From Flavobacteriales bacterium (GTDB taxonomy: Bacteria > Bacteroidota > Bacteroidia > Flavobacteriales_F > PHOS-HE28): a stretch of DNA of 64,000 bases. This document shows, in pieces, positions 45,618 to 60,593 of the stretch. Made by a program: the position numbers and the translations under genes. The stretch spans positions 2,707,982-2,771,981 of the forward strand of contig CP064979.1 of the NCBI GenBank assembly GCA_016699575.1, read 5' to 3'. The first letter of the stretch is position 1; each line of letters begins with the position of its first letter. The notes under the pieces were generated by a model. That model ran no database searches. It worked only from the letters and a program-made list of their open reading frames with translations, and had not been told where the DNA came from.

Positions 45618-48152
45618 TCAGAAACTGAAGGTGGCCATCACGAAGAAGGTGCGGCCGTACATGTAACTGTAGCGGTTCGGGAAGCGGTCCACGTCCTGGC
45701 GGTCGAAGCGCAGTTGCTCGAAGCCGCCGGTGATGAAGTCCGTTACATTGAAGAGGTTGTTGATGTTGGCGTTGACGGCGAAGCGGTACTTGCGCTTGAA
45801 CATCCAGCTCTTGCCACCGTAGATGTCCACGATGAACGCGCTGTTGAGCTTCTCCTGTTCGAGCAGTTTTTCCACCTGCGGATCGTCCTGCACGAAGATC
45901 TCCGTGGCTTCGGCCGTGCGGCGTGCAGGGTTCGGGTCCAGGTAGATGTCGTCGAAGTAGTTGCCGTTGGCGCCCACGAACCAGAATTTGGGTGCACTGT
46001 ACTTGAGGCCGATGCTCGCGGCGGTCTGCGGCATGCCGCCCACGCGGTAGTTCTTCCAGTAAACGGTACGGTCGCTCGCCAATACTTCGCTGCTGTTGTC
46101 GCGTGTTGCTGTCGCTTGCGGACGGCTGCTGTAGAGGTATTGCCCCCCTGCGTACACAGCGGTCATCGTCCATGTTGCGGTGATGTTGGCCTCGGCGCCG
46201 AGCTCCACGCCCATGTGCGTCTGGTCAACCCCGCTCATGGTGTAGTTGACGATGGTGAGGAACTCCTCGTTGAAGAAACTGCGGCTCCAGATCTGGTCCG
46301 TGAACTTCGTCCAGTAACCAGTCAAGCGCCCTTTGATGCGCGGGGCGCGAAGGATGTAGTTGATGTCGGCGCTGGTGACCTTCTCGTTGGTGAGGCCGTC
46401 GATCACGCCATCCTGGTTGCGCGCGCTCAGGTACGACCAGCGGGGAGCAGGCGGCCGGGTCATGTACGCGGCATTGGCGGATACGTAGTGACGGCCACTG
46501 ATCTTGTACACGGCACCGCCCTTCAACCCGTAATGGAAGAAGCTGTGCGTTCCGCCCTTGCCCTTGCTGCTGGTGGGGAAGCGGCCGTTGGCCACGTTGC
46601 CTTCGCGGAAGAAACTGGTGTTCGCGAGGTTCAGGCCCAGGTACACCTCCAGTGTGCGCCACTTCTGCTCGAACTGGCCGAAGGCGTTCAGGTTGCTCAC
46701 GTGCAGTTCATAGTCGTAGCCGAAACGATCGCCCACGCGCACCACACGGTTGGGGTTCTCGATGTCGTTCTGTGCCGCGTTCGGGTCGTCCTGGTCCAGC
46801 TCCGCGAACTGGTTCAGGTCGAGCCAGTAGTCGCCGCCCAGCAGGTCCTTCACCACCTTGAAATTGTGCGTCACCTGCTTGTTCCAGCTGATGCCGGCGG
46901 TGATGTGGCCGTTCTCTTTCCAGGGCTTGTTCCACACGCTGTTGATGCCCCAACGCGTGGGGTCGTTGCGCTGCTCTTCCACGATGTACTTGCTGCGCAT
47001 GCCCGTCACGTTGTTCCCAACAATGCCATCGGCGTTCACCACCGTGTGCAGGTTCTTGCTGTTGGCGAAGTAGAGCTGCTCCCAGTCGATCTGGCGCACA
47101 TTGTCGTCGCTGCCCCAAAGGCTCGCCAGTTGCGCGGCGTAGGCCGGGTCGGTCTGGTCGTAGTAGCTCGGCAGGTAGCGGTAGTAATCGGGGCGGGGGT
47201 CCTTGGCGTCGAACCAGTTCAGGTTGGTAAGGCCATCGCGACCGAATGTGTAGACCACGCTCGTCTGCACTTTGCCCTTCTTGTCCAGGTCCCAGTTGTG
47301 CGTGAGCAGGAACACGGGCTTGTGGTCGTGGCTCATCCTTGCGTTGCGCTTTTCGCCATCCTGGTAACCCCAGTTCGGGTTGTAATAGTTGGTGCCAGTG
47401 AGATCATAGATCTCTTGGATGGCAGCGCCTTGGCGGCCTTGGATGATAGGCGCGCCGAAGTAGGTGAAGTTCAGGCTCTGCTTCTCGGTGAGCTTGCGCT
47501 CCACGGCCAGGAAGTAGGCCCAGGCATTGTAGCTGGTTCCGTCCACGTATCCTTCCTCGGCCCAACGGCGGCTGCCGCTCACGCTCAGTGCCCAGCCATT
47601 GCTCTGCATGCCCGTGTTATAGGTCACCATCACGCGGTTACGGTAGCTGCGGTTGGTGAAGGCCACCGAGGTGCGCAGGCCCTTGCGCAGGTGACCGGCG
47701 CGCAGGCCGATCTCCGTGTGCCCGCCTATGCTGCCGAAGGTCTCGCGGCTCGCTGCCACACCGTTGTGCACCCGCATCCAGCGGGTAACGTCGTTCAGGC
47801 CGCCCCAGAGGGTCCACGGCGCGAAGCCGCTCTCCAGGTCGTTGATCATCACGCCGTTCAGCGTCACAAGCGTGTTCTCGCCGTCGTAGCCGCGGATACG
47901 GAACCGTGCGTTGCCGAAGTTGAAGCCTGCCGTGCTGGTGAACACATCGCGGGAGCTTTGCAGCACACCACTGATGTCCTGGGCGCCCAGGGCCGCATCG
48001 AGCTCCTGCGCATCCATGGTGTACATGGGTGCGCGGGAGGCGCCGCCGGCCGTGTCGGCGGGCATGTACAGGGTGGTATCGATCTGCGCCAGAACGCCCA
48101 AGGCCGGGCCGAACGAAGCGAGCAAGAGGAGCGAGCGTACAGAACGGATCAT
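45618..48152 (-). CDS. TonB-dependent outer-membrane receptor
   Basis: Start MIRSVRSLLLLASFGPALGVLAQ (track ORF extends to 48329 through a non-Met start). Plug region TLVTLNGVMINDLESG, a >700-aa barrel, C-terminal FSF. Confidence 0.85.
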   Translation of the reverse strand: MIRSVRSLLLLASFGPALGVLAQIDTTLYMPADTAGGASRAPMYTMDAQELDAALGAQDISGVLQSSRDVFTSTAGFNFGNARFRIRGYDGENTLVTLNGVMINDLESGFAPWTLWGGLNDVTRWMRVHNGVAASRETFGSIGGHTEIGLRAGHLRKGLRTSVAFTNRSYRNRVMVTYNTGMQSNGWALSVSGSRRWAEEGYVDGTSYNAWAYFLAVERKLTEKQSLNFTYFGAPIIQGRQGAAIQEIYDLTGTNYYNPNWGYQDGEKRNARMSHDHKPVFLLTHNWDLDKKGKVQTSVVYTFGRDGLTNLNWFDAKDPRPDYYRYLPSYYDQTDPAYAAQLASLWGSDDNVRQIDWEQLYFANSKNLHTVVNADGIVGNNVTGMRSKYIVEEQRNDPTRWGINSVWNKPWKENGHITAGISWNKQVTHNFKVVKDLLGGDYWLDLNQFAELDQDDPNAAQNDIENPNRVVRVGDRFGYDYELHVSNLNAFGQFEQKWRTLEVYLGLNLANTSFFREGNVANGRFPTSSKGKGGTHSFFHYGLKGGAVYKISGRHYVSANAAYMTRPPAPRWSYLSARNQDGVIDGLTNEKVTSADINYILRAPRIKGRLTGYWTKFTDQIWSRSFFNEEFLTIVNYTMSGVDQTHMGVELGAEANITATWTMTAVYAGGQYLYSSRPQATATRDNSSEVLASDRTVYWKNYRVGGMPQTAASIGLKYSAPKFWFVGANGNYFDDIYLDPNPARRTAEATEIFVQDDPQVEKLLEQEKLNSAFIVDIYGGKSWMFKRKYRFAVNANINNLFNVTDFITGGFEQLRFDRQDVDRFPNRYSYMYGRTFFVMATFSF

Positions 48153-48352
48153 GGGTGGCGGACGTCGGGCGGCTTTCTGAAAGGGCGCCAAATGTAGCCC
48201 GCTGCTTGCCCCGGCTAAGGCCGAGTTGTTCACCGTTGCGCTAAGGCTGTGCAAAGGATCCGTGCACCGCCCGACTTGCGTAACTCGTCTTCCACCGGCG
48301 TCGACAGCGCCCCCCCGCGGGCGATACATTCGACGGCTTTTCCCGGCCCCTC

Positions 48353-51300
48353 ATGGCTTTCCCCTCCATGCCCGCCTTCCGAAGCGTCCTCCTGGCCGCA
48401 CTATTGGGCTGCGCCAGCGGGTTGAGGGCCGGCCACTTCGCCGGGGGCAACATCACGTACGAGTGCCTTGGTGGAACCAGCTACGAGGTGACGCTTGATC
48501 TCTTCCTGGATTGCTCGGGGGCCGCCATGATCCCCCAGGACCTCAATTTCCAAAGTGATTGCGGCGTCAGCTTCTCCCTGAACTCGCTGCCTGCACCCGT
48601 GCCCACCGAGGTGAGCCAGCTCTGCGCGGCGGAGATCCCGAACAGCACCTGCAACGGCGGTGCCTTGCCAGGCATTGAACACTACCAGTTCACCGTGGTG
48701 GTGAACCTGGCGGCGTGCAACGACTGGACGATCAGCTGGGATCTCTGCTGTAGGGCAGGCACCAACAACCTCATGGGCGTGCCGGGGATGTACGTCTCCG
48801 CCAACCTGGACAATGCAACAGCGCCCTGCAACAACAGTCCTGTCTTCACGGATTACTCCATCCCTTACGTGTGCGTGGGCCAACCGGCCAGCTACAACTA
48901 CGGCATCACCGAGCCCGATGGCGACAGTATCACGTATGCGCTGATCTCCGCATTACAGAACGTAGGCGTGCCGGTGCCTTACCAAGGTGGATTCACCGGC
49001 GCGGTGCCGATCCCGGGTGTGGCGCTCGACACACAAACCGGCCAGCTGACCTTCACCCCGCCCAACATCGGCAACTATGTGGTGGCGGTGCTCGTGAACG
49101 AGTACGATGCCAATGGCGTGCTCATCGGCCAGGTGATGCGCGACCAAATGTTCATCGCCATCGCATGCACCGGAAGCACACCAACGACAACGGGTATTTC
49201 CGGCGTCACCGGTCCCGCGGGCACTTACCTGGTGACGAGTTCCAACAGTATCGAGATCTGCGATGGTGCCAACGTGTGCGTTGATGTGGAGTTCACCGAC
49301 GTTGACCCGGCAACCACCATCCAGGTCGTATCCCAAGCGGCCACGTTGCTTCCTGGCTCAACCTTCACCATTACCGGCACCAACCCGGCAGTGGCCACCA
49401 TTTGCTGGACGGCCAACATCAACAACTCACCGGTGAACGTGCTCATCCAGGCGGATGATGGCGCGTGCCCGATCGAGAACACCGTCAGTACGTCCATCAA
49501 CTTCGTGGTGACGCAGCCGCAGGCCGGTGCCTTCGATCCGGGGACGAACGGTAGCATCACCGTGTGTGAGAACGTTGCACCCTTTCCGCTGTTCGGCGAA
49601 CTGGGCGGAACGCCGGATGCTGGTGGGACTTGGACTGCACCGGGCGGTGCCGCTCACAGCGGTACGTACGATCCTTCCGTTGATGTGCCCGGTGTGTACA
49701 CCTACACGGTGGGCAATGCCTGTGGCGGCGCCAGTGCAACTGTTACCGTGACGGAGAACCCGCTGCCGAACGCTGGAACCAACGGGAATCTGCAGGTGTG
49801 CGATAACGCAGGCCCTGTTGCATTGTTCAGCGGTTTGGGCGGCGCGCCTTTGGTGGGTGGGACCTGGACGGCCCCAGGCGGAGCAGCACATGGTCCCAAT
49901 TACGATCCGGCCAGCGATGTGCCTGGCGTGTACACCTACACGGTGAACGGTGTTGCACCCTGTGTCACTGCTTCGGCAACCGTAGCGGTGACCGAAGTGG
50001 CCCCACCGAACGCCGGAACCAACGGATTCTGGACGCTCTGCGGACAGACCGGTACTGTGAACATGTTCCTGGCCTTGGGCGGAGCGCCGCAAGCAGGTGG
50101 CACATGGACCGCTCCCGGTGGCGTTGCTCACGGCGCGATCTACGATCCGGTGGTCGACAATCCCGGTGTGTACACCTACACTGTTCCGGGCACCGCGCCG
50201 TGTGCTGCTTCCTCCGCCACTGTAACTGTTACAGAGAATCCCGCGGCGAACGCCGGTTCTAACGGGGCCATCACCATCTGTTCCACCAGTGCGCCGTTCG
50301 TGCTGTTCGCACAGCTGGGCGGAACGCCCGATGCTGGCGGAACATGGACCGGCCCCGGTGGCGCTGCGCATGGCCCGAACTACAACCCGGCAGTGGACGG
50401 TAGCGGTGTATACACCTACACTGTTGCAGGCATTGCGCCCTGCCTGAACTCAGTGGCCACGGTCACTGTCACGGAGAACGCGGCGCCGAACGCAGGAACG
50501 AACAACGCGATCACGGTGTGTTCCAACGGAGCGCCTGTTTCGCTTTTAGGCTCACTCTTGGGCGGTCCATCGGCCGGTGGCACATGGACCGATCCCGGTG
50601 GGGTGGCCCACGGTGCGCTCTACGATCCGCTGGTTGACGCTCCCGGCGTTTACACCTACACCATTCTTGGCAACGCTCCTTGCGCCAATGCCTCGGCGAC
50701 CATCACCGTAACGGAAACCACCGCTCCCAATGCCGGTACGAACGGAGTGCTGACCGTGTGCGCGAACAGTGCTGCAACTGGTCTCTTCGCTTCACTTGGT
50801 GGTGCGCCGCAAGCTGGCGGAACATGGACAGCCCCAGGCGGCGCAGGGCACAGCGGCACCTACGATCCTGCGGTGGATGCACCCGGCGCATTCACATACA
50901 CTGTTGCTGGTGCACCTCCCTGCGCGAACGCGACGGCAACGGTGACGGTGACGGAGAACGCACCGCCGAACGCTGGCACGAACGGAGCACTAACGGTCTG
51001 CGCCAACAGTGCTGCAACAGGTCTCTTCGCTTCACTTGGTGGCGCGCCGCAAGCAGGCGGAACATGGACTGCACCCGGTGGCGCAGCGCACAGTGGTACG
51101 TATGACCCGGCGGTGGATGCACCGGGCGCATACACATACACCGTCGCTGGACCGGCGCCTTGCGCGAACGCGACGGCAACGGTGACGGTGACCGAGAACG
51201 CACCGCCGAACGCTGGCACGAACGGAGCACTAACGGTCTGCGTCAACAGTGCTGCAACAGGTCTCTTCGCATCGCTCGGCGGTTCGCCGCAAGCAGGCGG

Positions 51301-54300
51301 AACATGGACCGCCCCAGGCGGCGCAGCGCACAGCGGCACCTACGATCCTGCGGTGGATGCACCCGGCGCATTCACATACACTGTTGCTGGTGCACCTCCC
51401 TGCGCGAACGCGACGGCAACGGTGACGGTGACGGAGAACGCACCGCCGAACGCAGGCACGAACGGAGCACTAACGGTCTGCGCCAACAGTGCTGCAACAG
51501 GTCTCTTCGCTTCACTTGGTGGCGCGCCGCAAGCAGGCGGAACATGGACTGCACCCGGTGGCGCAGCGCACAGCGGTACGTATGACCCGGCGGTGGATGC
51601 ACCGGGCGCATACACATACACCGTCGCTGGACCGGCGCCTTGCGCGAACGCGACGGCAACGGTGACGGTGACCGAGAACGCACCGCCGAACGCTGGCACG
51701 AACGGAGCACTAACGGTCTGCGTCAACAGTGCTGCAACAGGTCTCTTCGCATCGCTCGGCGGTTCGCCGCAAGCAGGCGGAACATGGACCGCCCCCGGCG
51801 GTGCAGCGCACAGCGGCACGTATGATCCGGCTGTTGATGCACCCGGGGCATACACATACACTGTCGCTGGACCGGCGCCTTGCGCGAACGCGACGGCAAC
51901 GGTGACGGTGACCGAGAACGCACCGCCGAACGCTGGCACGAACGGAGCACTAACGGTCTGCGCCAACAGTGCTGCAACAGGTCTCTTCGCATCGCTCGGC
52001 GGTTCGCCACAAGCAGGCGGAACATGGACCGCCCCCGGCGGTGCAGCGCACAGCGGCACGTACGATCCGGCCGTTGATGCACCCGGTGCGTACACATACA
52101 CCGTCGCTGGAACGGCGCCTTGCGCGAACGCAACGGCAACGGTGACGGTGACGGAGAACGCACCGCCGAACGCTGGAACGAACGGCGTGCTTACGCTTTG
52201 TGCGAACAGTGCTGCATCAGCGCTCTTCGCTTCACTTGGTGGCGCGCCGCAAGCAGGCGGAACATGGACTGCACCCGGTGGTGCGGCTCACAGTGGCACG
52301 TATGATCCGGCTGTTGATGGCGCCGGTGCATACACATACACCGTTGCTGGTACACCGCCTTGCGCGAACGCCACGGCAACGGTGACGGTGACCGAGAACG
52401 CACCGCCGAACGCTGGCACGAACGGTGTGCTGACCGTGTGCGTGAACGGTGTCGCGACCGGTCTCCTCACATCGCTTGGTGGTGCACCGCAAGCCGGTGG
52501 AACATGGACCGCCCCCGGTGGTGCAGCACACAGCGGCACGTACGATCCGGCTGTTGATGGGCCTGGGGTTTACACCTACACTGTTGTCGGCGCTGTGCCA
52601 TGTGCTGATGCTGTTGCCACGGTTTTGGTAACTGAGAATGCTGCTCCGGATGCCGGGATCGACGGTGCGCTTGTGGTCTGCTCCAACGGTCCAATGGTCG
52701 GCTTGATCGCTTCGTTGGGTGGTGCACCCCAAGGAGGAGGTGTGTGGACGGCCCCAGGTGGGCTCGCGCATTCCGGCAACTACGATCCGACCGTGGATGG
52801 TCCAGGCGTATACACCTATTCGGTTTGGGGCACCGCACCCTGTGCAGTTGCCACAGCTTCGGTCACTGTCACCGAAAACGTTCCACCCTCTGCAGGTACG
52901 AACGGCGGGTTGTCCATATGCTCCAATGGAGCACCCACGGGGCTGTTCTTTTGGCTGGCAGGGGCCCCGCAAGCCGGTGGGACCTGGACAGCGCCTGGTG
53001 GTGCGGCGCACAGCGGTACGTACGATCCAGCGGTCGACATGCAGGGTGCATATACCTACACGGTCCTTGGGTCGGCACCCTGTGCGGATGCCAGTGCCAC
53101 CGTAACGGTCACGGAGAATGCGGCTCCCGATGCCGGAGCCGATGCTGTGCTGACCATCTGTTCCAGCGATGGGCCACTGGCACTCTTCACCTTGTTGGGT
53201 GGCGCGCCGCAACCAGGTGGCAGCTGGACGGGTCCGGGTGGCACGGCGCATAGTGGCACGTATGATCCCGCCGTCGATGCCACGGGTGCCTACATGTACA
53301 CCGTTGTTGGGTTGCCCCCGTGCGCCAATGCAACTGCCACCGTTACGGTGACGGAAGTCGCTGCCGTTGATGCTGGTGCGAACGGAGCGCTGAGTGTTTG
53401 CGCAAGCACCCCGGCTGTTGCACTGATCAGTAGTTTGGGGGGGGCTCCTGGTGCAGGTGGCTCGTGGACCGCGCCGGGCGGTGCCGCACACAGTGGTGTC
53501 TTCGATCCAGCGGTGGATGTGGCAGGCAACTACACGTACACGCTGTTAGGAACTGCACCCTGTCCCGATGCCGCTGCTGTGGTGGCTGTCACCATCGCGC
53601 CGGCTCCGGATGCCGGCGGTAGTGCTGGGTCCCTTGCTTGCAGCGACGGGCCAGCAATGGACCTCTTCCTTGGGTTGACCGGAGCACCTGATGCAGGTGG
53701 GACGTGGACCGCGCCAGGTGGTTTGGCGCACTCGGGCTTGTACGATCCACTGGTCGATGCTCCGGGGGTCTACACCTACACCGTACCAGGAACACCGCCG
53801 TGTGCGAACGCAAGTGCCGGTGTTACGATGATGGAAGTGGCACCTGCCAACGCGGGCATTGATGCGGCGTTCGCGGCTTGTGCCACCGGTGGGGCAACGA
53901 ACCTGTTCCCATTGTTGGGTGGTGCCCAACCCGGTGGAACATGGACCGCTCCGGGCGGTGGTGCGCACAATGGCTTCTTCGATCCCGCGGTGGATCTTGC
54001 CGGTGCATATGCATACACCGTTCTTGGAAATGCTCCGTGCCCGGACGACGTGGCTGTGATCACTGTCGTGATCACGGCAACACCGGATGCCGGTACGAAT
54101 GGAACGCTGACGCTGTGCGAAGACATGGCGCCAACGTCGCTCTTCGCGGCGCTCGGTGGCGGCCCGGATGCCGGGGGAACATGGACCGATCCCAATGGCA
54201 ATGTGCATGGTCCAACGGTCGACCCGACCGTTGACCCCAGCGGTGTGTACACGTACACTATCGCGGCGGTGCCGCCCTGCTTGGGTGACGTCAGTACCGT

Positions 54301-57300
54301 CACGGTGTCCATTAACGCATTGCCTGATCCCGGCACCAACGGTTCACTCACCGTGTGCGACCAGGGTGCTCCGCAACCGCTCTTCGCCGCGCTCGGTGGA
54401 AGTCCGGACGCTGGAGGAACGTGGACCGATCCCAACGGCAACGCACACAGTGGCAGCATCGACCCGAGCATTGATCCAGCAGGCAACTACACCTACACGG
54501 TGAACGGAACAGCGCCATGCGGCAGTGCAAGTGCGATCGTTTCTGTAACGATCACCGGCTCTCCCACCGCTGGAACAGACGGAGCTTGGACCTTGTGCGA
54601 GGACATGGCGCCAACGTCGCTCTTCGCGGCGCTCGGTGGCGGCCCTGATGCCGGGGGAACATGGACCGATCCCAATGGCAATGTGCATGGTCCAACGGTC
54701 GACCCGACCGTTGACCCCAGCGGTGTGTACACGTACACTATCGCGGCGGTGCCGCCCTGCTTGGGTGACGTCAGTACCGTCACGGTGTCCATTAACGCAT
54801 TGCCTGATCCCGGCACCAACGGTTCACTCACCGTGTGTGACCAAGGCGCGCCACAATCGCTCTTTGCCGCGCTCGGTGGAAGTCCGGACGCTGGAGGAAC
54901 GTGGACCGATCCCAACGGCAACGCACACAGTGGCAGCATCGATCCGAGCGTTGATCCCGCGGGCAACTACACATACACCGTGAATGGCACAGCGCCGTGC
55001 GGCAGTGCAAGTGCGATCGTTGCTGTATCGATCACCGGCTCTCCCACCGCTGGAACAGACGGAGCTTGGACCTTGTGCGAAGACATGGCGCCGACATCGC
55101 TCTTCGCGGCCTTGGGTGGTGGCCCTGATGCTGGCGGCACATGGACCGATCCGAACGGCAATGCACACAGCGGCACTATTGATCCCGCAACGGATCCTGC
55201 AGGGATCTACACGTACACTATTGCGGCTGTTCCACCTTGCCTTGGAGATGTGAGCACAGTTACGGTCACCATCAACGCGCTGCCCGATCCCGGCACCAAC
55301 GGCGCGCTCACCGTGTGCGATCAAGGAGCGCCGCAGTCGCTCTTCGCCGCGCTTGGTGGAAGTGCGGACGTCGGTGGCACATGGACTGATCCCAACGGCA
55401 ATGCACACAGCGGCAGCATCGACCCGAGCATTGATCCGGCGGGCAACTACACCTACACCGTGAATGGCACAGCGCCGTGCGGTAGTGCTAGTACGGTCGT
55501 TGCAGTAACGATCACCGGCTCTCCCGATGCGGGAACAGATGGCGCATGGACCTTGTGCGAAGACATGGCGCCGACGTCGCTCTTCGCGGCGCTCGGTGGC
55601 GGCCCTGATGCTGGCGGCACATGGACCGATCCGAACGGCAACGCACACAGCGGCACGGTCGACCCCGCCAATGATCCCGCTGGTGTCTACACGTACACGA
55701 TCGCAGCCGTTCCACCGTGCTTGGGTGATGTCAGCACAGTGACAGTGACGATCAATGCGCTTCCTGATCCCGGCACCAACGGCGCGCTCACCGTGTGCGA
55801 TCAAGGTGCTCCGCAAACGCTCTTCGCGGCGCTTGGTGGAAGTCCGGACGCAGGCGGAACATGGACGGATCCCAACGGCAACGCACACAGCGGCAGCATC
55901 GACCCGAGCATTGATCCAGCGGGCAACTACACCTACACCGTGAATGGCACAGCGCCATGCGGCAATGCCTCCTCTGTTGTTGCAGTCACCATTTCCGGTT
56001 CACCGAACGCGGGCACCAATGGTGCGTGGACGCTCTGTGAGTCCTTCGCTCCAACGTCGCTCTTCGCAGCACTCGGCGGCGGCCCTGATGCCGGGGGAAC
56101 ATGGACCGATCCCAACGGCAATGCGCACGGTCCAACGGTCGACCCGACCGTTGACCCCAGCGGTGTGTACACCTACACCATCGCTGGTGTACCCCCCTGC
56201 CCAGGTGATGTGAGCACGGTGACCGTTACCATCAATCCATCGCCGGATGCGGGTCTGGATGGAGCGTTGACGGTGTGCGATCAGGGAGCATCACAATCGC
56301 TCTTCCCCGCGCTCGGTGGAAGTCCGGATGCCGGTGGCACATGGACCGATCCCAACGGCAACGCACACAGTGGCAGCATCGATCCGAGCGTTGATCCGGC
56401 GGGCAACTACACCTACACCGTGAATGGCACAGCGCCGTGCGGTAGTGCAAGTTCGGTCGTTGCAGTAACGATCACCGGATCGCCCACTGCTGGAACAGAT
56501 GGCGCATGGACCTTGTGCGAAGACATGGCACCAACGTCGCTCTTCGCAGCGCTCGGCGGCGGCCCTGATGCCGGGGGAACATGGACCGATCCCAACGGCA
56601 ATGCGCACGGTCCAACGGTCGACCCGACCGTTGACCCCAGCGGTGTTTACACCTACACCATCGCTGGTGTACCCCCCTGCCCAGGTGATGTGAGTACAGT
56701 GACCGTCACCATCAACCCATCGCCGGATGCGGGTCTGGATGGAGCGTTGACGGTGTGCGATCAGGGAGCATCACAATTGCTCTTCCCCGCGCTCGGTGGA
56801 AGTCCGGATGCCGGTGGCACATGGACCGACCCGAACGGCAACGCACACAGCGGCAGCATCGACCCGAGCATTGATCCGGCAGGCAACTACACCTACACGG
56901 TGAACGGCATCGTGCCATGCGGCAGTGCTAGTGCGATCGTGGCCGTAACGATCACGGGATCGCCGAACGCGGGCATCATGGGTGTGCTCACCGTTTGTGA
57001 GAACGCTGCGATCACCGATCTTTTCTTGTCGCTAGGTGGCACTCCTGATGCGGGTGGTGCATGGACCGATCCCAATGGGAACATGCACAGCGGGCAGTTC
57101 GATCCGGCAAATGATCCGCAGGGCGGTTACATCTACACCATTTCCGCTGTTCCACCCTGTCTCGGCGCATCCGCTGGTGTGAATGTCTCTGTTGAGGCGC
57201 TTCCGGACGCAGGGACCGACGCAAGCAACACGTTCTGCGAGAGTTGGGGCGCTGTCAACTTGTTCAACGAACTGGGCGGCGCGCCCACCGGCGGCGGTAC

Positions 57301-59662
57301 TTGGGCCGACCCCAATGGCGACCCGTTCGTTGGCCTTTTCAACACCGGATCATCGTTGGTGGGTGCCTATACCTACACGGTCGTGGGCGTTGTTTGCCCA
57401 GGCGATCAATCGACCGTGACGATCAACGTGGTGCCCGATCCCGACGCCGGAGTGAACAACATGATCACGGTGTGCGCCACCGCTCCCGGGTTCACGATGC
57501 TCGATTCGTTGCTGGGCACCCCCGACAATACGGGCACATGGTTCGATGCGAACAGCGTAGCGGTGGCGCCGATGTTCGATCCTGCCTTCGACCCAGCAGG
57601 TGTTTATACCTACGTAGTTCCGGCACCTGCGACCTGTCCTGGTGCACCACCAACATCAACGCTCACCGTCGCTGTGGATCCCGTACCCGATGCCGGCCTC
57701 GATGCAGCCATCACCGTGTGCACCGGCGATGCGCCTTTCGCCCTCCTTGCACAGTTGGGCGGAAGCCCCGATGCCGGTGGAACGTGGACCGATCCCAACG
57801 GCGTTGCGTTCGGTCCAGTTTTCGACCCTGGAACGGATGCGCCAGGCAATTACACGTACACGGTCGGTGGCGGTGCATGTCCCCCGGACCAGAGCGTGGT
57901 CGCTATCACCGTGAACCCCGGTCCGGATGCGGGCCTCGACAACGCCATCGCCCTTTGCAGCAACGGCGCGCCCATCCAACTTACCGGCGCGCTGCTCGGA
58001 ACGCCGGACCTCAACGGTTCATGGACCGATCCCAACGGTGTTGCGTTCGGTGGAACGTTCGACCCCAGTGCTTCGCAACCGGGCGTGTACGCCTACACCG
58101 TGCCCGGCAACGCGGGCTGCCCCGATGATGTCGCTGAACTGACCATGGCCGTGAGCCCGGAAGCCGATGCGGGCACCAACGGTGTTGCGCAATTGTGCAG
58201 CAACGACGCGCCGGTGGACCTCTTCACCTTGCTAGTTGGTACACCGGATGCAGGTGGGGCATGGGTTGATCCCAACGGCATTGCCACCACCGCGGTCATG
58301 GACCCGAGCAATGCACTGAGCGGAGCCTACACGTACACGGTGACAGGCCTTCCGCCGTGCGCCAACGCCACCGCGAGCGTCTCTGTTACCATCACACCTG
58401 CGCCCGATGCGGGTGCTGATGCGATTGCGACCTACTGCAACACCTCGCCGCCAGTTCAGCTCTTCGGGTTGCTGGGTGGTGCACCGCAAACAGGGGGCGC
58501 CTGGACCGATCCGAACGGGAACCCGAGCGGTGGTGCTTTCGATCCAGCGAATGATACGCCCGGCGCCTATACCTATCGTGTGGTCGGACAGGGCAATTGT
58601 GTCGATGACGCATCAGTGGTGACGGTGAACGTGAGCATCGCCGCCGATGCTGGAAGCGACGGCAGCATCACCGTGTGCAGCAACGATGCCGCCTTCACGC
58701 TCTTCCCGCTGCTCGGTGGAAGTCCGGATGCAGGCGGCACTTGGACGGACCCGAACGGGACAGCGATGAACGGTACCGTGGATCCCTTCACTGCTGTCGG
58801 TGGCGACTACACCTATACCGTGAATTCACCAGTGCCGTGTGCGGCGCAGAGCGCGGTGGTGACCGTCACCATCATCCCCAACAACGCACCTGGGATCACC
58901 ATCGACATCGGGAATGGATGCGCGCCTGTGCTGGCCAGCATCACCAGCAGCTATACCGGGCCGGGCACGTGCGTGTGGGACCTCGGCAACGGCACCAGCG
59001 TCAACGAATGCGAGCCTGATTCCATCGAATACCTAGCGGGCACCTACGACCTTTCCGTGACGATCGATCCCGGGAACGGGTGCAACGGCACCTTCACGTA
59101 CACGGATGCAGTGGTGGTGGTTGATCCGCCCACCGCATCCTTCTACGCACTGCCCGATACGCAGGTGAGCATTGCCAACACCGAGGTCTTCTTCGCCAAT
59201 ACCAGCTCCGGCGCCAACGCATGGCTGTGGCAGTTCGACAGTCTGGACGAAAGCACCACGGAGAACCCACTGTACGTGTTCCCCAACGAAGAGCCCGGCG
59301 AGTACGAGGTCTGTCTGGTCGCATACGCATCAGCAACATGCGCCGACACAGCCTGCCATACCATCATCGTTGTGGGCAGCGGCGTGTGGGTGCCGAACAG
59401 CTTCACACCCGATGGTGACGGCCACAACGACTTCTTTTTCCCGGTCCTGGGAAACCCATCACCGGAAGAATACCGCTTCGCGATCTTTGATCGTTGGGGC
59501 CAGCCGCTCTTCGACACCACCGACCCTGCGCAAGGCTGGGACGGCAGTTTCGTTGATGGCCAGCAGACACCGCTCGGTGTCTACATCTGGAAACTCTGGA
59601 TGCGCGAACCCTTCACCAGTGATAGGGTGGAGCGCACTGGGCATGTGACGTTGGTGAGGTGA
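48353..59662 (+). CDS. giant (3769-aa) SprB-like cell-surface adhesin: signal peptide, ~350-aa Cys-rich N-terminal domain, 39 tandem ~80-aa Ig-like (HYR/SprB-type, family unverified) repeats, two PKD-like domains, T9SS type-B (gliding-motility-associated) C-terminal domain
   Basis: Single uninterrupted ORF. Repeat consensus N(A)GTNG.LTVC.......LF..LGG.P(D/Q)AGGTWT.P.G.AHSG.YDP..D..G.YTYTV.G..PC.....TVTVTE. C-terminus VPNSFTPDGDGHNDFFFPV...FAIFDRWGQPLFDT......WDGSF.....P.GVYIWKL matches TIGR04131-type CTD. Confidence 0.9.
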   Translation: MAFPSMPAFRSVLLAALLGCASGLRAGHFAGGNITYECLGGTSYEVTLDLFLDCSGAAMIPQDLNFQSDCGVSFSLNSLPAPVPTEVSQLCAAEIPNSTCNGGALPGIEHYQFTVVVNLAACNDWTISWDLCCRAGTNNLMGVPGMYVSANLDNATAPCNNSPVFTDYSIPYVCVGQPASYNYGITEPDGDSITYALISALQNVGVPVPYQGGFTGAVPIPGVALDTQTGQLTFTPPNIGNYVVAVLVNEYDANGVLIGQVMRDQMFIAIACTGSTPTTTGISGVTGPAGTYLVTSSNSIEICDGANVCVDVEFTDVDPATTIQVVSQAATLLPGSTFTITGTNPAVATICWTANINNSPVNVLIQADDGACPIENTVSTSINFVVTQPQAGAFDPGTNGSITVCENVAPFPLFGELGGTPDAGGTWTAPGGAAHSGTYDPSVDVPGVYTYTVGNACGGASATVTVTENPLPNAGTNGNLQVCDNAGPVALFSGLGGAPLVGGTWTAPGGAAHGPNYDPASDVPGVYTYTVNGVAPCVTASATVAVTEVAPPNAGTNGFWTLCGQTGTVNMFLALGGAPQAGGTWTAPGGVAHGAIYDPVVDNPGVYTYTVPGTAPCAASSATVTVTENPAANAGSNGAITICSTSAPFVLFAQLGGTPDAGGTWTGPGGAAHGPNYNPAVDGSGVYTYTVAGIAPCLNSVATVTVTENAAPNAGTNNAITVCSNGAPVSLLGSLLGGPSAGGTWTDPGGVAHGALYDPLVDAPGVYTYTILGNAPCANASATITVTETTAPNAGTNGVLTVCANSAATGLFASLGGAPQAGGTWTAPGGAGHSGTYDPAVDAPGAFTYTVAGAPPCANATATVTVTENAPPNAGTNGALTVCANSAATGLFASLGGAPQAGGTWTAPGGAAHSGTYDPAVDAPGAYTYTVAGPAPCANATATVTVTENAPPNAGTNGALTVCVNSAATGLFASLGGSPQAGGTWTAPGGAAHSGTYDPAVDAPGAFTYTVAGAPPCANATATVTVTENAPPNAGTNGALTVCANSAATGLFASLGGAPQAGGTWTAPGGAAHSGTYDPAVDAPGAYTYTVAGPAPCANATATVTVTENAPPNAGTNGALTVCVNSAATGLFASLGGSPQAGGTWTAPGGAAHSGTYDPAVDAPGAYTYTVAGPAPCANATATVTVTENAPPNAGTNGALTVCANSAATGLFASLGGSPQAGGTWTAPGGAAHSGTYDPAVDAPGAYTYTVAGTAPCANATATVTVTENAPPNAGTNGVLTLCANSAASALFASLGGAPQAGGTWTAPGGAAHSGTYDPAVDGAGAYTYTVAGTPPCANATATVTVTENAPPNAGTNGVLTVCVNGVATGLLTSLGGAPQAGGTWTAPGGAAHSGTYDPAVDGPGVYTYTVVGAVPCADAVATVLVTENAAPDAGIDGALVVCSNGPMVGLIASLGGAPQGGGVWTAPGGLAHSGNYDPTVDGPGVYTYSVWGTAPCAVATASVTVTENVPPSAGTNGGLSICSNGAPTGLFFWLAGAPQAGGTWTAPGGAAHSGTYDPAVDMQGAYTYTVLGSAPCADASATVTVTENAAPDAGADAVLTICSSDGPLALFTLLGGAPQPGGSWTGPGGTAHSGTYDPAVDATGAYMYTVVGLPPCANATATVTVTEVAAVDAGANGALSVCASTPAVALISSLGGAPGAGGSWTAPGGAAHSGVFDPAVDVAGNYTYTLLGTAPCPDAAAVVAVTIAPAPDAGGSAGSLACSDGPAMDLFLGLTGAPDAGGTWTAPGGLAHSGLYDPLVDAPGVYTYTVPGTPPCANASAGVTMMEVAPANAGIDAAFAACATGGATNLFPLLGGAQPGGTWTAPGGGAHNGFFDPAVDLAGAYAYTVLGNAPCPDDVAVITVVITATPDAGTNGTLTLCEDMAPTSLFAALGGGPDAGGTWTDPNGNVHGPTVDPTVDPSGVYTYTIAAVPPCLGDVSTVTVSINALPDPGTNGSLTVCDQGAPQPLFAALGGSPDAGGTWTDPNGNAHSGSIDPSIDPAGNYTYTVNGTAPCGSASAIVSVTITGSPTAGTDGAWTLCEDMAPTSLFAALGGGPDAGGTWTDPNGNVHGPTVDPTVDPSGVYTYTIAAVPPCLGDVSTVTVSINALPDPGTNGSLTVCDQGAPQSLFAALGGSPDAGGTWTDPNGNAHSGSIDPSVDPAGNYTYTVNGTAPCGSASAIVAVSITGSPTAGTDGAWTLCEDMAPTSLFAALGGGPDAGGTWTDPNGNAHSGTIDPATDPAGIYTYTIAAVPPCLGDVSTVTVTINALPDPGTNGALTVCDQGAPQSLFAALGGSADVGGTWTDPNGNAHSGSIDPSIDPAGNYTYTVNGTAPCGSASTVVAVTITGSPDAGTDGAWTLCEDMAPTSLFAALGGGPDAGGTWTDPNGNAHSGTVDPANDPAGVYTYTIAAVPPCLGDVSTVTVTINALPDPGTNGALTVCDQGAPQTLFAALGGSPDAGGTWTDPNGNAHSGSIDPSIDPAGNYTYTVNGTAPCGNASSVVAVTISGSPNAGTNGAWTLCESFAPTSLFAALGGGPDAGGTWTDPNGNAHGPTVDPTVDPSGVYTYTIAGVPPCPGDVSTVTVTINPSPDAGLDGALTVCDQGASQSLFPALGGSPDAGGTWTDPNGNAHSGSIDPSVDPAGNYTYTVNGTAPCGSASSVVAVTITGSPTAGTDGAWTLCEDMAPTSLFAALGGGPDAGGTWTDPNGNAHGPTVDPTVDPSGVYTYTIAGVPPCPGDVSTVTVTINPSPDAGLDGALTVCDQGASQLLFPALGGSPDAGGTWTDPNGNAHSGSIDPSIDPAGNYTYTVNGIVPCGSASAIVAVTITGSPNAGIMGVLTVCENAAITDLFLSLGGTPDAGGAWTDPNGNMHSGQFDPANDPQGGYIYTISAVPPCLGASAGVNVSVEALPDAGTDASNTFCESWGAVNLFNELGGAPTGGGTWADPNGDPFVGLFNTGSSLVGAYTYTVVGVVCPGDQSTVTINVVPDPDAGVNNMITVCATAPGFTMLDSLLGTPDNTGTWFDANSVAVAPMFDPAFDPAGVYTYVVPAPATCPGAPPTSTLTVAVDPVPDAGLDAAITVCTGDAPFALLAQLGGSPDAGGTWTDPNGVAFGPVFDPGTDAPGNYTYTVGGGACPPDQSVVAITVNPGPDAGLDNAIALCSNGAPIQLTGALLGTPDLNGSWTDPNGVAFGGTFDPSASQPGVYAYTVPGNAGCPDDVAELTMAVSPEADAGTNGVAQLCSNDAPVDLFTLLVGTPDAGGAWVDPNGIATTAVMDPSNALSGAYTYTVTGLPPCANATASVSVTITPAPDAGADAIATYCNTSPPVQLFGLLGGAPQTGGAWTDPNGNPSGGAFDPANDTPGAYTYRVVGQGNCVDDASVVTVNVSIAADAGSDGSITVCSNDAAFTLFPLLGGSPDAGGTWTDPNGTAMNGTVDPFTAVGGDYTYTVNSPVPCAAQSAVVTVTIIPNNAPGITIDIGNGCAPVLASITSSYTGPGTCVWDLGNGTSVNECEPDSIEYLAGTYDLSVTIDPGNGCNGTFTYTDAVVVVDPPTASFYALPDTQVSIANTEVFFANTSSGANAWLWQFDSLDESTTENPLYVFPNEEPGEYEVCLVAYASATCADTACHTIIVVGSGVWVPNSFTPDGDGHNDFFFPVLGNPSPEEYRFAIFDRWGQPLFDTTDPAQGWDGSFVDGQQTPLGVYIWKLWMREPFTSDRVERTGHVTLVR
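49500..58880 (+). repeat. coding tandem-repeat array, 39 x 240 bp, with higher-order 480-bp units that are >=99% identical at DNA level in two blocks (50.70-52.42 kb and 54.06-56.95 kb)
   Basis: Direct comparison: 50941-51180 vs 51421-51660 differ at 2 of 240 nt; 54110-54350 vs 54590-54830 are near-identical. Confidence 0.85.
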
Positions 59663-59672
59663 TGGGCTTCCC

Positions 59673-60593
59673 ATGGACCTGACGCGGTTCATAACAACAG
59701 TGGCTCTTGTCGGCGGGGTACTTGTCGCGCATTCGCAACCCTGCAGTGCTGGCGACCTGAAGAAGTTGGAGCGTCGGATGGACAAGAGCGATGTGGCATG
59801 TGGCGCGCATATAGCGTACGCCATAGCGCAGTGCTACAGGGACGTGAACGATTCGCTCTGGAAGCACTGGTTGGGCGAGGCCATTCGTCTGCGCAAGGCT
59901 TGTATGCAGTGCTTGAACATGGCCGACCGCATTGATCAGATCAGCAGCATCGCGAAGTGGTACCTGGAATTGGGGGACGAGACGAACTCCGAACTATGGG
60001 CGGAGAAGTGGACCAAGGTGGAATGCGAAAGCAACGAGCCGCATTACCATTTGGCCAAAGTGTACCTCCATCAAAACAAGCGGAAGGAAGCCCTTGCGGG
60101 ATTCCGGGTTGCCCAGAAGAAGGGCGGAAAGCAGGAAGACTTGTCCAGGCACATCGCTCACCTCGATTCGTTGTTCAACTACCCCGTTACCGTACGGCTC
60201 CTACAAGATGTTGAGTTGACCGGGCGAGTGGTGGATCTCGACTCCACGCAGCATTCCATCCAGCGTTGCAGATCTGAGCACGGTTGGGATTTCATCTGCA
60301 CCATCGATGGGCGGCCCTTCTTCGGCATGGACACTGGGAATGAGCCTCCGCGGAACGAGTTCGTATTCCTCTACCTGACCCTTGCTGGCCAGCGCATCGA
60401 CCTCGACGTGTCCGGCATGTTCAACCCGTGTTGGGATGGCGTTATCGATCAGGGTATGTTCGATTGGCAATTTATCGAGAGCGGCTATCTGCTCCGTGGT
60501 TACTTCAGCGACGGTGCCGGTTCCTACATCGCGGAGTGGACCATTATCGGTGGGTCGTCCATGCGTACGCGGATCGAGCGGTTCAGTCCATAA
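59673..60593 (+). CDS. hypothetical Cys-containing secreted protein encoded 11 nt downstream of the giant adhesin
   Basis: 306 aa, N-terminal hydrophobic segment (FITTVALVGGVLVAHS), 12 Cys, no beta-barrel-like C-terminus. Not PorP/SprF-like. Confidence 0.55.
   Translation: MDLTRFITTVALVGGVLVAHSQPCSAGDLKKLERRMDKSDVACGAHIAYAIAQCYRDVNDSLWKHWLGEAIRLRKACMQCLNMADRIDQISSIAKWYLELGDETNSELWAEKWTKVECESNEPHYHLAKVYLHQNKRKEALAGFRVAQKKGGKQEDLSRHIAHLDSLFNYPVTVRLLQDVELTGRVVDLDSTQHSIQRCRSEHGWDFICTIDGRPFFGMDTGNEPPRNEFVFLYLTLAGQRIDLDVSGMFNPCWDGVIDQGMFDWQFIESGYLLRGYFSDGAGSYIAEWTIIGGSSMRTRIERFSP

Follow-up and report, generated by a model that had tools for sequence, protein, structure and literature searches.

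The window analysed here, a 64,000-nucleotide stretch of contig CP064979.1 from an uncultured Flavobacteriales bacterium (positions 2,707,982–2,771,981), contains a giant gene whose coding sequence repeats with periods of 240 and 480 bp. A preliminary description of this DNA read the periodicity as the mark of a recent expansion or of concerted evolution among near-identical units, which raises the question of how alike and how old the copies are, and by which processes the array took its present form.

Architecture of the giant protein

The gene (48353–59662, + strand) is a single intact open reading frame of 11.3 kb and 3769 amino acids, as seen from the ORF list and translation, and its CHU_C, PKD_4 and TIGR04131 matches mark the product as a very large, repeat-rich substrate of the T9SS type B class and a putative fibrillar surface protein. 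It opens with a hydrophobic leader, MAFPSMPAFRSVLLAALLGCASGLRA, a putative signal peptide judged by eye from the translation, and a head of three beta-sandwich domains (48353–49537, +; AF2 pLDDT 94.7, pTM 0.90). Fold comparison of the head returned generic Ig/cadherin-like tandem beta-sandwich matches only, and a specific ligand-binding fold was sought and not found; a homology search with the 400-aa head as query found 137 homologues, the top ones at 59–63% identity. The array follows (49538–58888, +): 39 in-frame tandem repeats of 80 aa (240 nt), recognized as Ig-like from the unit table, HMM domains, AF2 modeling (two-repeat model, pLDDT 79.7) and fold matches, each with two conserved cysteines, C10 and C64, which are invariant. 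Repeats r2–r18 and r20–r33 are spaced at exactly 240 nt with zero indels. The periodicity described earlier is real, and reflects at the DNA level the 39 Ig-like domains encoded in tandem. The repeat domain is present in 4707 protein clusters and has no Pfam model, and Pfam and NCBIfam searched at permissive thresholds gave nothing credible for either the 80-aa repeat or the head; a domain this widespread is worth cataloguing.

Downstream of the array lie a PKD domain (aa 3600–3666; 59150–59350, +; PF18911) and a T9SS type B C-terminal sorting domain (aa 3680–3769; 59390–59659, +), with both of its matches above the curated cut-offs: PF13585 CHU_C at 45.8 bits (cut-off 27; aa 3680–3764) and TIGR04131 at 38.5 bits (cut-off 35). 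By analogy with other proteins that carry this type of sorting domain, the product is expected to pass through the T9SS and remain attached to the cell surface. The Ig-like array would then form the stalk of the exported protein, with surface display, and any adhesive role, being putative. The adjoining downstream ORF of 306 aa (59673–60593) gave no Pfam match at E ≤ 0.001, its NCBIfam matches being weak and TPR-like, and a PorP/SprF-like partner is not recognizable in it in either scan; a cognate partner gene of this kind beside a type B substrate is frequent, not universal.

The giant protein can be set beside known systems. [quoted passage not shown] The window protein resembles SprB in its repetitive build, its length of several thousand residues and its type B sorting domain (CHU_C / TIGR04131); unlike SprB, it has no match to the SprB repeat PF13573 at E ≤ 0.01 over its 3769 aa and no recognizable PorP/SprF gene directly downstream, and the gliding role is a feature of SprB rather than one evidenced here. 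The grappling-hook protein GhpA of Aureispira sp. CCB-QB1 (PDB 9flp, 9flv and others; PMC12428579) is likewise a T9SS substrate, and Ig-like domains make up most of it. Among solved structures it matches the two-repeat model best (Foldseek E = 1e-5 to 1e-3, TM about 0.3, 15–21% identity), and it is the only PDB sequence-profile match below E = 0.01 (E = 0.0078, six stretches), a weak similarity; the heptamer, the hooks and prey capture are features of GhpA, not evidenced for the window protein.

Identity and age of the repeats

Two blocks, together holding 19 of the 39 repeats, are 85–100% identical in protein within their own repeat type, and the flanking repeats are far more diverged (50–65% nt), as had been noted. 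Block 1 (repeats 6–12; 50732–52411, +) shows pairwise identities of 82–99% nt and 87.5–100% aa, and is reported by Tandem Repeats Finder as period 240 × 7.6 copies with 88% matches (50738–52559). The proposed alternation of two variants holds in r6–r9 (AF..APP / AY..PAP) and stops there, r10–r12 being all of the AY type. Positions 50941–51180 and 51421–51660 do differ at exactly 2 of 240 positions, as counted by hand, but the approximately 99% identity claimed for the 480-bp units of this block belongs to one tract pair only: 50848–51315 and 51328–51795 (468 nt, 2 mismatches, lag 480, +). This pair, which contains the longest exact repeat of the array (221 nt, 51095–51315 = 51575–51795; none reaches 250 nt) and has a sharp breakpoint at its edge at about 50848, is the youngest event, and fits one tandem duplication or crossover in two-repeat register. 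Compared in register, the 480-nt units are 95.8% (r6r7 vs r8r9), 91.7% (r8r9 vs r10r11) and 87.9% (r6r7 vs r10r11) identical; in the first of these comparisons, the initial 116 nt hold 18 of the 20 differences. A second young tract (51623–51822 = 51863–52062, +) spans 200 nt with 2 mismatches at lag 240; apart from the young tracts, DNA identity within repeats 6–12 is 82–96%.

Block 2 (repeats 20–31; 54089–56968, +) consists of six two-domain units of 480 nt in which domain types A and B alternate (identity 62% nt at lag 1, 86% at lag 2), and Tandem Repeats Finder gives period 480 × 5.9 copies with 86% matches (54114–56955). The A/B alternation described for these repeats is therefore borne out; their near-identity is not, the units being 85–96% identical in protein and only 77.3–93.5% in DNA. 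Near-identical sequence is found here in two tract pairs only. One is 54122–54357 = 54602–54837 (236 nt, 1 mismatch, +), beyond which the sequence is about 92% identical and whose longest perfect run, 191 nt, was reached by 0 of 20,000 permutations; the other is 56072–56349 = 56552–56829 (278 nt, 6 mismatches, +). Self-comparison of the whole array yields just four tract pairs of at least 97.8% identity (468, 236, 200 and 278 nt), with most unit pairs at 77–93%, so that near-identity had been overstated: protein-level identity appears to have been carried over to the DNA.

The proteins remain 85–100% identical because most of the DNA differences are synonymous, at third codon positions, with dN/dS of 0.03–0.19 within blocks. 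Synonymous divergence itself is deep, with dS of 0.24 to above 1 for most unit pairs and, outside r7–r9, a full range from 0.13 to saturation. In block 1 it spans 0.03–0.8 (0.13–0.8 for units), r7–r9 standing at 0.03 vs 0.3–0.8 for their neighbors; in block 2 it runs from 0.17 to saturation among A-type repeats and from 0.27 to 1.2 among B-type repeats. As a benchmark, orthologous head domains of different species have dN/dS of 0.03–0.05 at dS 0.5–1.4 (for the pair L004–L005, 0.05 at dS 0.54), and the units are as deeply diverged as these. Given this depth, and the same constraint in the orthologous heads, most of the duplications are old, and a recent expansion does not describe most of the region. 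Ordinary purifying selection suffices for the gap between protein and DNA identity; selection for synonymous "scrambling" that would stabilize the array was rejected, since dN/dS matches the head benchmark and synonymous sites in block 1 are unsaturated. It should be noted that protein repeat identity is a poor proxy for DNA identity, and that claims of recent expansion or fast switching need a check of synonymous sites.

Orthologous arrays and the assembly hazard

No conspecific sequence was found in protein, genome or metagenome collections, where the best contig match had 71% aa identity, and a look-up of the exact protein product gave no match. We compared six syntenic arrays: the window and L001, L006, L007, L012 and L015, four of these five coming from error-prone long-read contigs. 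The five orthologues have about 29–34 units each, so that repeat copy number differs between species, ranging from 28.7 to 39 with the window included. Terminal repeats of the syntenic arrays are diverged, and the interiors are homogenized within each genome: for the 13–19 internal repeats per array, the best paralogue averages 92.5–96.3% identity vs 67.7–74.0% for the best match in another genome, whereas for the first and last repeats the closest match is the positional orthologue (L007_26/27/29 with L012_34/35/37; window_1/2 with L003_1/2). A two-unit higher-order periodicity is present in four of the six lineages, and nucleotide divergence between species is too great to call orthology among A and B types. 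Higher identity within than between genomes is expected equally from independent expansions and from concerted evolution, and does not cleanly separate the two.

The assembly hazard raised earlier proved real for the gene family, as all 13 orthologous contigs that fail to span the array end inside it; in the window itself only two exact repeats, those longer than 127 nt, pose such a hazard. Four of the five spanning long-read contigs carry 5–13 frame changes; most of these are indels of a single nt within short homopolymers, which point to sequencing error; pseudogenization of the orthologues was rejected on this account. The consequences are practical more than conceptual. In short-read MAGs the gene is truncated after 2–12 repeats and deposited as a "partial hypothetical protein", and in long-read MAGs frameshifts break it into strings of small ORFs, so that surveys of T9SS cargo or adhesins in activated-sludge Flavobacteriales would both undercount and mis-size these proteins.

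Probable recombination and the history of the array

Individual repeats are pieced together as mosaics from patches, each matching a different partner at 100% identity, in some cases from 1.4 kb away. Repeat r8 matches r10 over nt 1–96 and r6 over nt 97–240, and r29 is assembled from patches of r31, r23 and r25, each 100% identical. A Sawyer-type permutation test of fragment clustering was strongly significant, with the observed values 25 sd (A type), 10 sd (B type) and 35 sd (480-nt units) above the permutation mean; for block 1 the excess was 4.5 sd, which does not surpass the 4.2 sd given by diverged repeats taken as a control, and the case for conversion there rests on its sharp breakpoints. 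Clustered mismatches and identical patches, together with the permutation test, point to the unequal crossing-over and gene conversion proposed earlier, but as occasional events of short-tract conversion and crossing-over on an old array. We consider it the best explanation, with a probability of roughly 75%, that the stalk consists of old blocks of tandem Ig-like domains under purifying selection with occasional recombination.

On this reading, the blocks formed by repeats 6–12 and 20–31 would have arisen through duplications of one and of two repeats after the split from the sequenced relatives. The majority of copies would be old, their proteins held alike by purifying selection while synonymous sites drift. 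Misaligned repeats may still recombine occasionally, units of 240 or 480 nt being gained or lost by unequal crossing-over and patches of 50–470 nt being copied between repeats by short-tract gene conversion; such events would yield the few near-identical tracts and the mosaic. Terminal repeats would escape recombination and so retain positional orthology across species.

A history of ancient tandem duplication and purifying selection alone, with no later conversion or crossing-over, would account for the high dS (0.24 to above 1), for dN/dS as low as in the orthologous head and for a block 1 permutation signal not above control. We nevertheless hold it to be very unlikely, as divergence is strongly uneven along unit pairs (in one, a 236-nt stretch with 1 mismatch gives way to about 8% divergence; in another, a 116-nt segment of the 480 nt holds 18 of 20 mismatches), patches match different, non-adjacent partners at 100%, and dS drops to 0.03 in r7–r9 next to values of 0.3–0.8. 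The near-identical tracts and the mosaic could instead be products of the assembler or of reads mis-mapped during polishing, the true unit count or variants being different. The contig ends and frame changes in the orthologues show how hard such arrays are to assemble, and cross-mapping during polishing could transfer variants among repeats. However, the window's ORF is intact over 11.3 kb with its long runs of indel-free 240-nt spacing, the differences are overwhelmingly synonymous and at third positions, as real evolution predicts, and homogenized interior blocks recur in five independent assemblies of other species, making an artefact improbable.

The possibility of a fast, selected length switch, in which repeat number changes frequently within a population and tunes how far the head projects, derives from the Periscope proteins and fibrillar adhesins (SasG/Aap, Sgo_0707 SHIRT, Rib/alpha C, Esp, CdrA), whose genes need long reads to assemble correctly (PMC8201768, PMC9704523). 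The window protein shares with this class an N-terminal head carried on a long stalk whose tandem beta-sandwich domains resemble one another (PMC8201768). Repeats that are alike in DNA would offer material for intragenic recombination and for changes in length, high identity being confined here to the four tract pairs of 200–468 nt; array length does vary between species. In L015 and L018, a conspecific pair of a relative with 98.0% identity over 12.8 kb, colinearity is also lost within the array, where the two sequences are shifted by about 283 nt, although this discrepancy may be an assembly error. In contrast to the class, whose members are sortase-anchored, autotransporter or T1SS proteins, the window protein is a Bacteroidota T9SS type B substrate, its repeat domain lacks a Pfam model, its DNA identity is much lower, at 77–96% for most unit pairs, its synonymous divergence is deep, and the length variation known here is between species. 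With most units at 77–93% DNA identity and exact repeats of at most 221 nt, there would be few substrates for frequent RecA-dependent slippage, and we regard a switch in the strict Periscope sense as unlikely.

Occasional recombination on an old array is repeat evolution of an ordinary, well-known kind. Concerted evolution, in which the edge repeats of a tandem array are diverged and higher-order units occur, is a general phenomenon, and intragenic repeat variation is documented in bacteria (PMC2639597). The present arrays are like it in that internal units are closer within than between genomes, divergence and positional orthology mark the terminal units, and four of six lineages show the two-unit periodicity; they are unlike it in that homogenization is slow relative to synonymous drift, which leaves the array a patchwork and not a set of near-identical copies.

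A broader rule for uncultured Flavobacteriales can be put forward only tentatively, and we think it rather doubtful: a syntenic T9SS type B stalk of about 29–39 uncatalogued Ig-like domains, its length held while the heads diverge to about 50% identity, which would imply length homeostasis, and its interior continually rewritten by crossing-over in two-repeat register and short-tract conversion, with A/B alternation favored in most lineages. Should this hold, the alternation would possibly serve to avoid misfolding between identical neighbors.

Nucleotide identity within the repeat array

The gene for the giant, putative T9SS surface protein is a single ORF (48353-59662, + strand) encoding 3769 aa: a hydrophobic N-terminal leader, judged by eye, a head of ~370 aa with three beta-sandwich domains (within 48353-49537; AlphaFold pLDDT 94.7), 39 tandem repeats of 80 aa or 240 nt each (49538-58888; r1-r39), a PKD domain and, C-terminal to it, a T9SS type B sorting domain recognized by CHU_C (45.8 bits, cut-off 27) and TIGR04131 (38.5 bits, cut-off 35). 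Self-alignment of the array confirmed its periodicity and two homogenised blocks, r6-r12 (block 1, 50732-52411) and r20-r31 (block 2, 54089-56968), as real and far above background, and the flanking repeats are indeed far more diverged (50-65% identical). The nucleotide near-identity given in the preliminary description for 50.7-56.95 kb is, however, true only of ~1.2 kb of tracts. An exhaustive self-comparison at a threshold of >=97.8% identity returned only four tract pairs: 50848-51315 with 51328-51795 (468 nt, 2 mismatches, lag 480), 51623-51822 with 51863-52062 (200 nt, 2 mismatches, lag 240), 54122-54357 with 54602-54837 (236 nt, 1 mismatch, lag 480), and 56072-56349 with 56552-56829 (278 nt, 6 mismatches, lag 480). 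A fifth row, 51143-51315 with 51863-52035 (173 nt, 2 mismatches, lag 720), links the 468-nt and 200-nt tracts; exact repeats do not exceed 221 nt.

For 50941-51180 against 51421-51660, the earlier count (2 mismatches in 240 nt) was exact. The ~99% identity claimed for the 480-bp units of r6-r12 holds for the 468-nt tract pair, but not for the two-repeat units in register (r6r7 vs. r8r9, 95.8%; r8r9 vs. r10r11, 91.7%; r6r7 vs. r10r11, 87.9%), and the alternation of two variants (AF and AY) is limited to r6-r9. Single repeats of block 1 in register share 82-99% identity in DNA and 87.5-100% in protein. As described, r20-r31 form six two-domain units of alternating A and B types (nucleotide identity 62% at lag 1 and 86% at lag 2), but rather than being near-identical these are just 77.3-93.5% identical in DNA, versus 85-96% in protein. 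Tandem Repeats Finder gave matches of 88% and 86% for the block 1 and block 2 arrays, respectively.

Probable recombination and the age of the copies

Mismatches between units are clustered: 18 of the 20 between r6r7 and r8r9 lie within the first 116 nt, and between r20r21 and r22r23 a perfect run of 191 nt, a length reached by 0/20,000 permutations, adjoins ~8% diverged sequence. When every repeat was coloured by its closest relative in 48-nt windows, mosaics emerged: the first 96 nt of r8 match r10 and the remainder matches r6, and r29 carries 100%-identical patches of r31, r23, and r25, sources <=1.4 kb away. A Sawyer-type permutation of polymorphic sites gave an excess of fragment clustering of 25 sd for the A type, 10 sd for the B type, and 35 sd for the 480-nt units; block 1 reached 4.5 sd, not above the 4.2 sd of diverged control repeats, and the case for recombination there therefore rests on the breakpoints. 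One recent tandem duplication in the two-repeat register would produce the 468-nt tract at lag 480.

Differences between units fall mostly at third codon positions (e.g., 16/20, 35/40, and 65/89). Nei-Gojobori estimates gave a dS of 0.03 with zero non-synonymous differences for r7-r9, 0.13 for r10-r11 (dN/dS 0.09), 0.24-0.80 for the rest of block 1 (dN/dS 0.03-0.11), 0.17 to saturation for A-type repeats (dN/dS 0.04-0.12), and 0.27-1.2 for B-type repeats (dN/dS 0.07-0.19). As a yardstick, orthologous head domains were compared between species; they differ by a dS of 0.54 (dN/dS 0.05) between L004 and L005 and of 1.0-1.4 (dN/dS 0.03-0.04) between either of these and L006. Since the two ranges are comparable, most duplications in the two blocks appear to be as old as species-level splits, and the repeat proteins seem to be kept alike by ordinary constraint on the giant gene. 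Selection for synonymous "scrambling" was rejected, as the same constraint as in the head-domain benchmark accounts for the repeat dN/dS. Unequal crossing-over or gene conversion, as originally proposed, is favored by the clustered mismatches, mosaics, and permutation excess (the latter outside block 1), but as an occasional process, with mostly old duplications and slow homogenisation.

Orthologous arrays in relatives

The syntenic orthologue L001 (GCA_020635595.1) covers 9.6 kb (L001 10001-19557) and is split into ten ORFs, and the L002 contig stops 1.6 kb into the gene. Scans of genome and metagenome collections added 21 loci (L003-L023), all from Flavobacteriales/Bacteroidota MAGs or metagenome contigs; a conspecific locus was not found in these collections, the best match having 71% aa identity. 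Units were counted with an HMM of the repeat. Only five contigs, all from long-read projects, span the array: L001 (31.7 units, 13 frame changes), L006 (31.8 units, 5), L007 (28.7 units, 0), L012 (33.6 units, 7), and L015 (33.2 units, 5). Most frame changes stem from the gain or loss of one nucleotide in a short homopolymer and are therefore probably sequencing errors. The four frame-split arrays are annotated as runs of small hypothetical proteins, and some of their ORFs have faint spurious Pfam matches (Terminase_6 or Phage_T7). The sole intact spanning orthologue, L007 11195-18076, carries 29 repeats, each 237-240 nt long, and includes two higher-order blocks built of dimers; its repeats 17, 19, and 21 are 100% identical, and the array is far more homogeneous than that of the window.

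A further 13 contigs (L002-L005, L008-L011, L016-L019) stop inside the array after 1.7-12.5 units, and the remaining loci (given as five) have one repeat or none each: L013 has a single repeat, L014, L022, and L023 share just 39-42% head identity, and the L020 and L021 contigs end within the head region. The predicted hazard of short-read collapse or mis-counting is, as the broken contigs show, real in practice for the gene family. In the window it is only local, since non-unique pairs at k = 127 are confined to 51095-51315 / 51575-51795 and 54167-54357 / 54647-54837, with zero in the array at k = 250.

In each spanning array (four of the five comparison arrays being of low quality), the best paralogues of 13-19 internal repeats average 92.5-96.3% identity, versus 67.7-74.0% for the closest repeat from any other genome. 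First and last repeats are closer to their positional orthologues (e.g., repeats 26, 27, and 29 of L007 to 34, 35, and 37 of L012; 1 and 2 of the window to 1 and 2 of L003), and a two-repeat higher-order periodicity is present in the window, L007, L015, and L012 and absent in L006 and L001. In classical concerted evolution of tandem arrays, the interior is homogenised, the edges are diverged, and higher-order units arise; judged from sequence, the window array appears to follow this pattern, running slowly. L018 and L015, a conspecific pair of a relative, are 98.0% identical over 12.8 kb but lose colinearity at about unit 7 (L018 12500-14185 vs. L015 12783-14466; offset ~283 nt, identity dropping to 90.9%), a hint of array variation that assembly quality confounds, the break reflecting either such variation or an assembly error.

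Repeat domain, head module, and known systems

The 80-aa repeat (consensus ..TVC...AP..LF..LGG.PDAGGTWTDPGG.AHSG..DP.VD..G.YTYTV.G.APC..A.ATVTVT..) contains two invariant cysteines and has no match in Pfam or NCBIfam at thresholds as permissive as E = 10. A two-repeat AlphaFold model consists of two small beta-sandwich domains (pLDDT 79.7), its top solved-structure matches being the Ig-like arrays of GhpA (Foldseek E = 1e-5, TM ~0.3), which the repeat sequence profile also matched in the PDB (E = 0.0078). The nearest solved structure, GhpA (PMC12428579), is a grappling-hook protein that Aureispira secretes through the T9SS; the likeness is at the level of Ig-like arrays only. The profile search returned 4707 cluster representatives, of which 866 scored E <= 1e-30, with <=31 copies per protein; two sampled relatives have the same architecture (repeats, PKD, and CHU_C). 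The repeat is apparently a widespread Ig-like domain of T9SS cargo that has yet to be catalogued.

A fold search with the head matched generic Ig/cadherin-like structures only. The head-domain search found 137 homologues (best 59-63% identity), nearly all of 460-700 aa and many labelled "partial" because contigs end in the gene (L002) or the orthologue splits into ORFs (L001). The three-domain module occurs in >130 proteins, many of which are short (~460-625 aa) and have a type A CTD (PF18962), while a type B CTD (PF13585) is found in others; the head is thus paired with either class of T9SS sorting signal, and a long stalk may be present or absent.

In fibrillar or "Periscope" surface proteins, a stalk of similar folded domains projects a head, and DNA similarity permits intragenic recombination (PMC8201768). 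By analogy, the giant protein would work in the same way, although it belongs to the T9SS type B substrates and has an uncatalogued repeat domain, its array has much lower DNA identity, and, in contrast to the strain-level length variation of Periscope proteins, the array is known from one genome, with no conspecific locus found. It resembles SprB in size, repetitiveness, and CTD type, and contains no SprB repeats. The kind of system is already known; what is new is this particular member, together with the domain repeated in it.

Proteins with a type B CTD are retained by PorP/SprF-like partners (PMC9143113), but a gene recognisable as PorP/SprF is absent next to the giant gene. Its neighbors upstream and downstream encode an Exo_endo_phos_3 protein, a CBM4_9 protein with a type A CTD, a DUF5689 protein, a TonB-dependent receptor, and a GT2 glycosyltransferase. 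Between the giant gene and the latter lies a 306-aa ORF (59673-60593, + strand), absent from the syntenic L001, with no Pfam match and weak, TPR-like NCBIfam matches, and not recognisably PorP/SprF. The longest ORF of the divergent receptor (45618-48329, - strand) starts 23 nt from the giant-gene ATG (48353, + strand); the true start of the receptor is probably further in, because its counterpart in L001 is shorter by 58 aa and leaves an intergenic gap of 261 nt.
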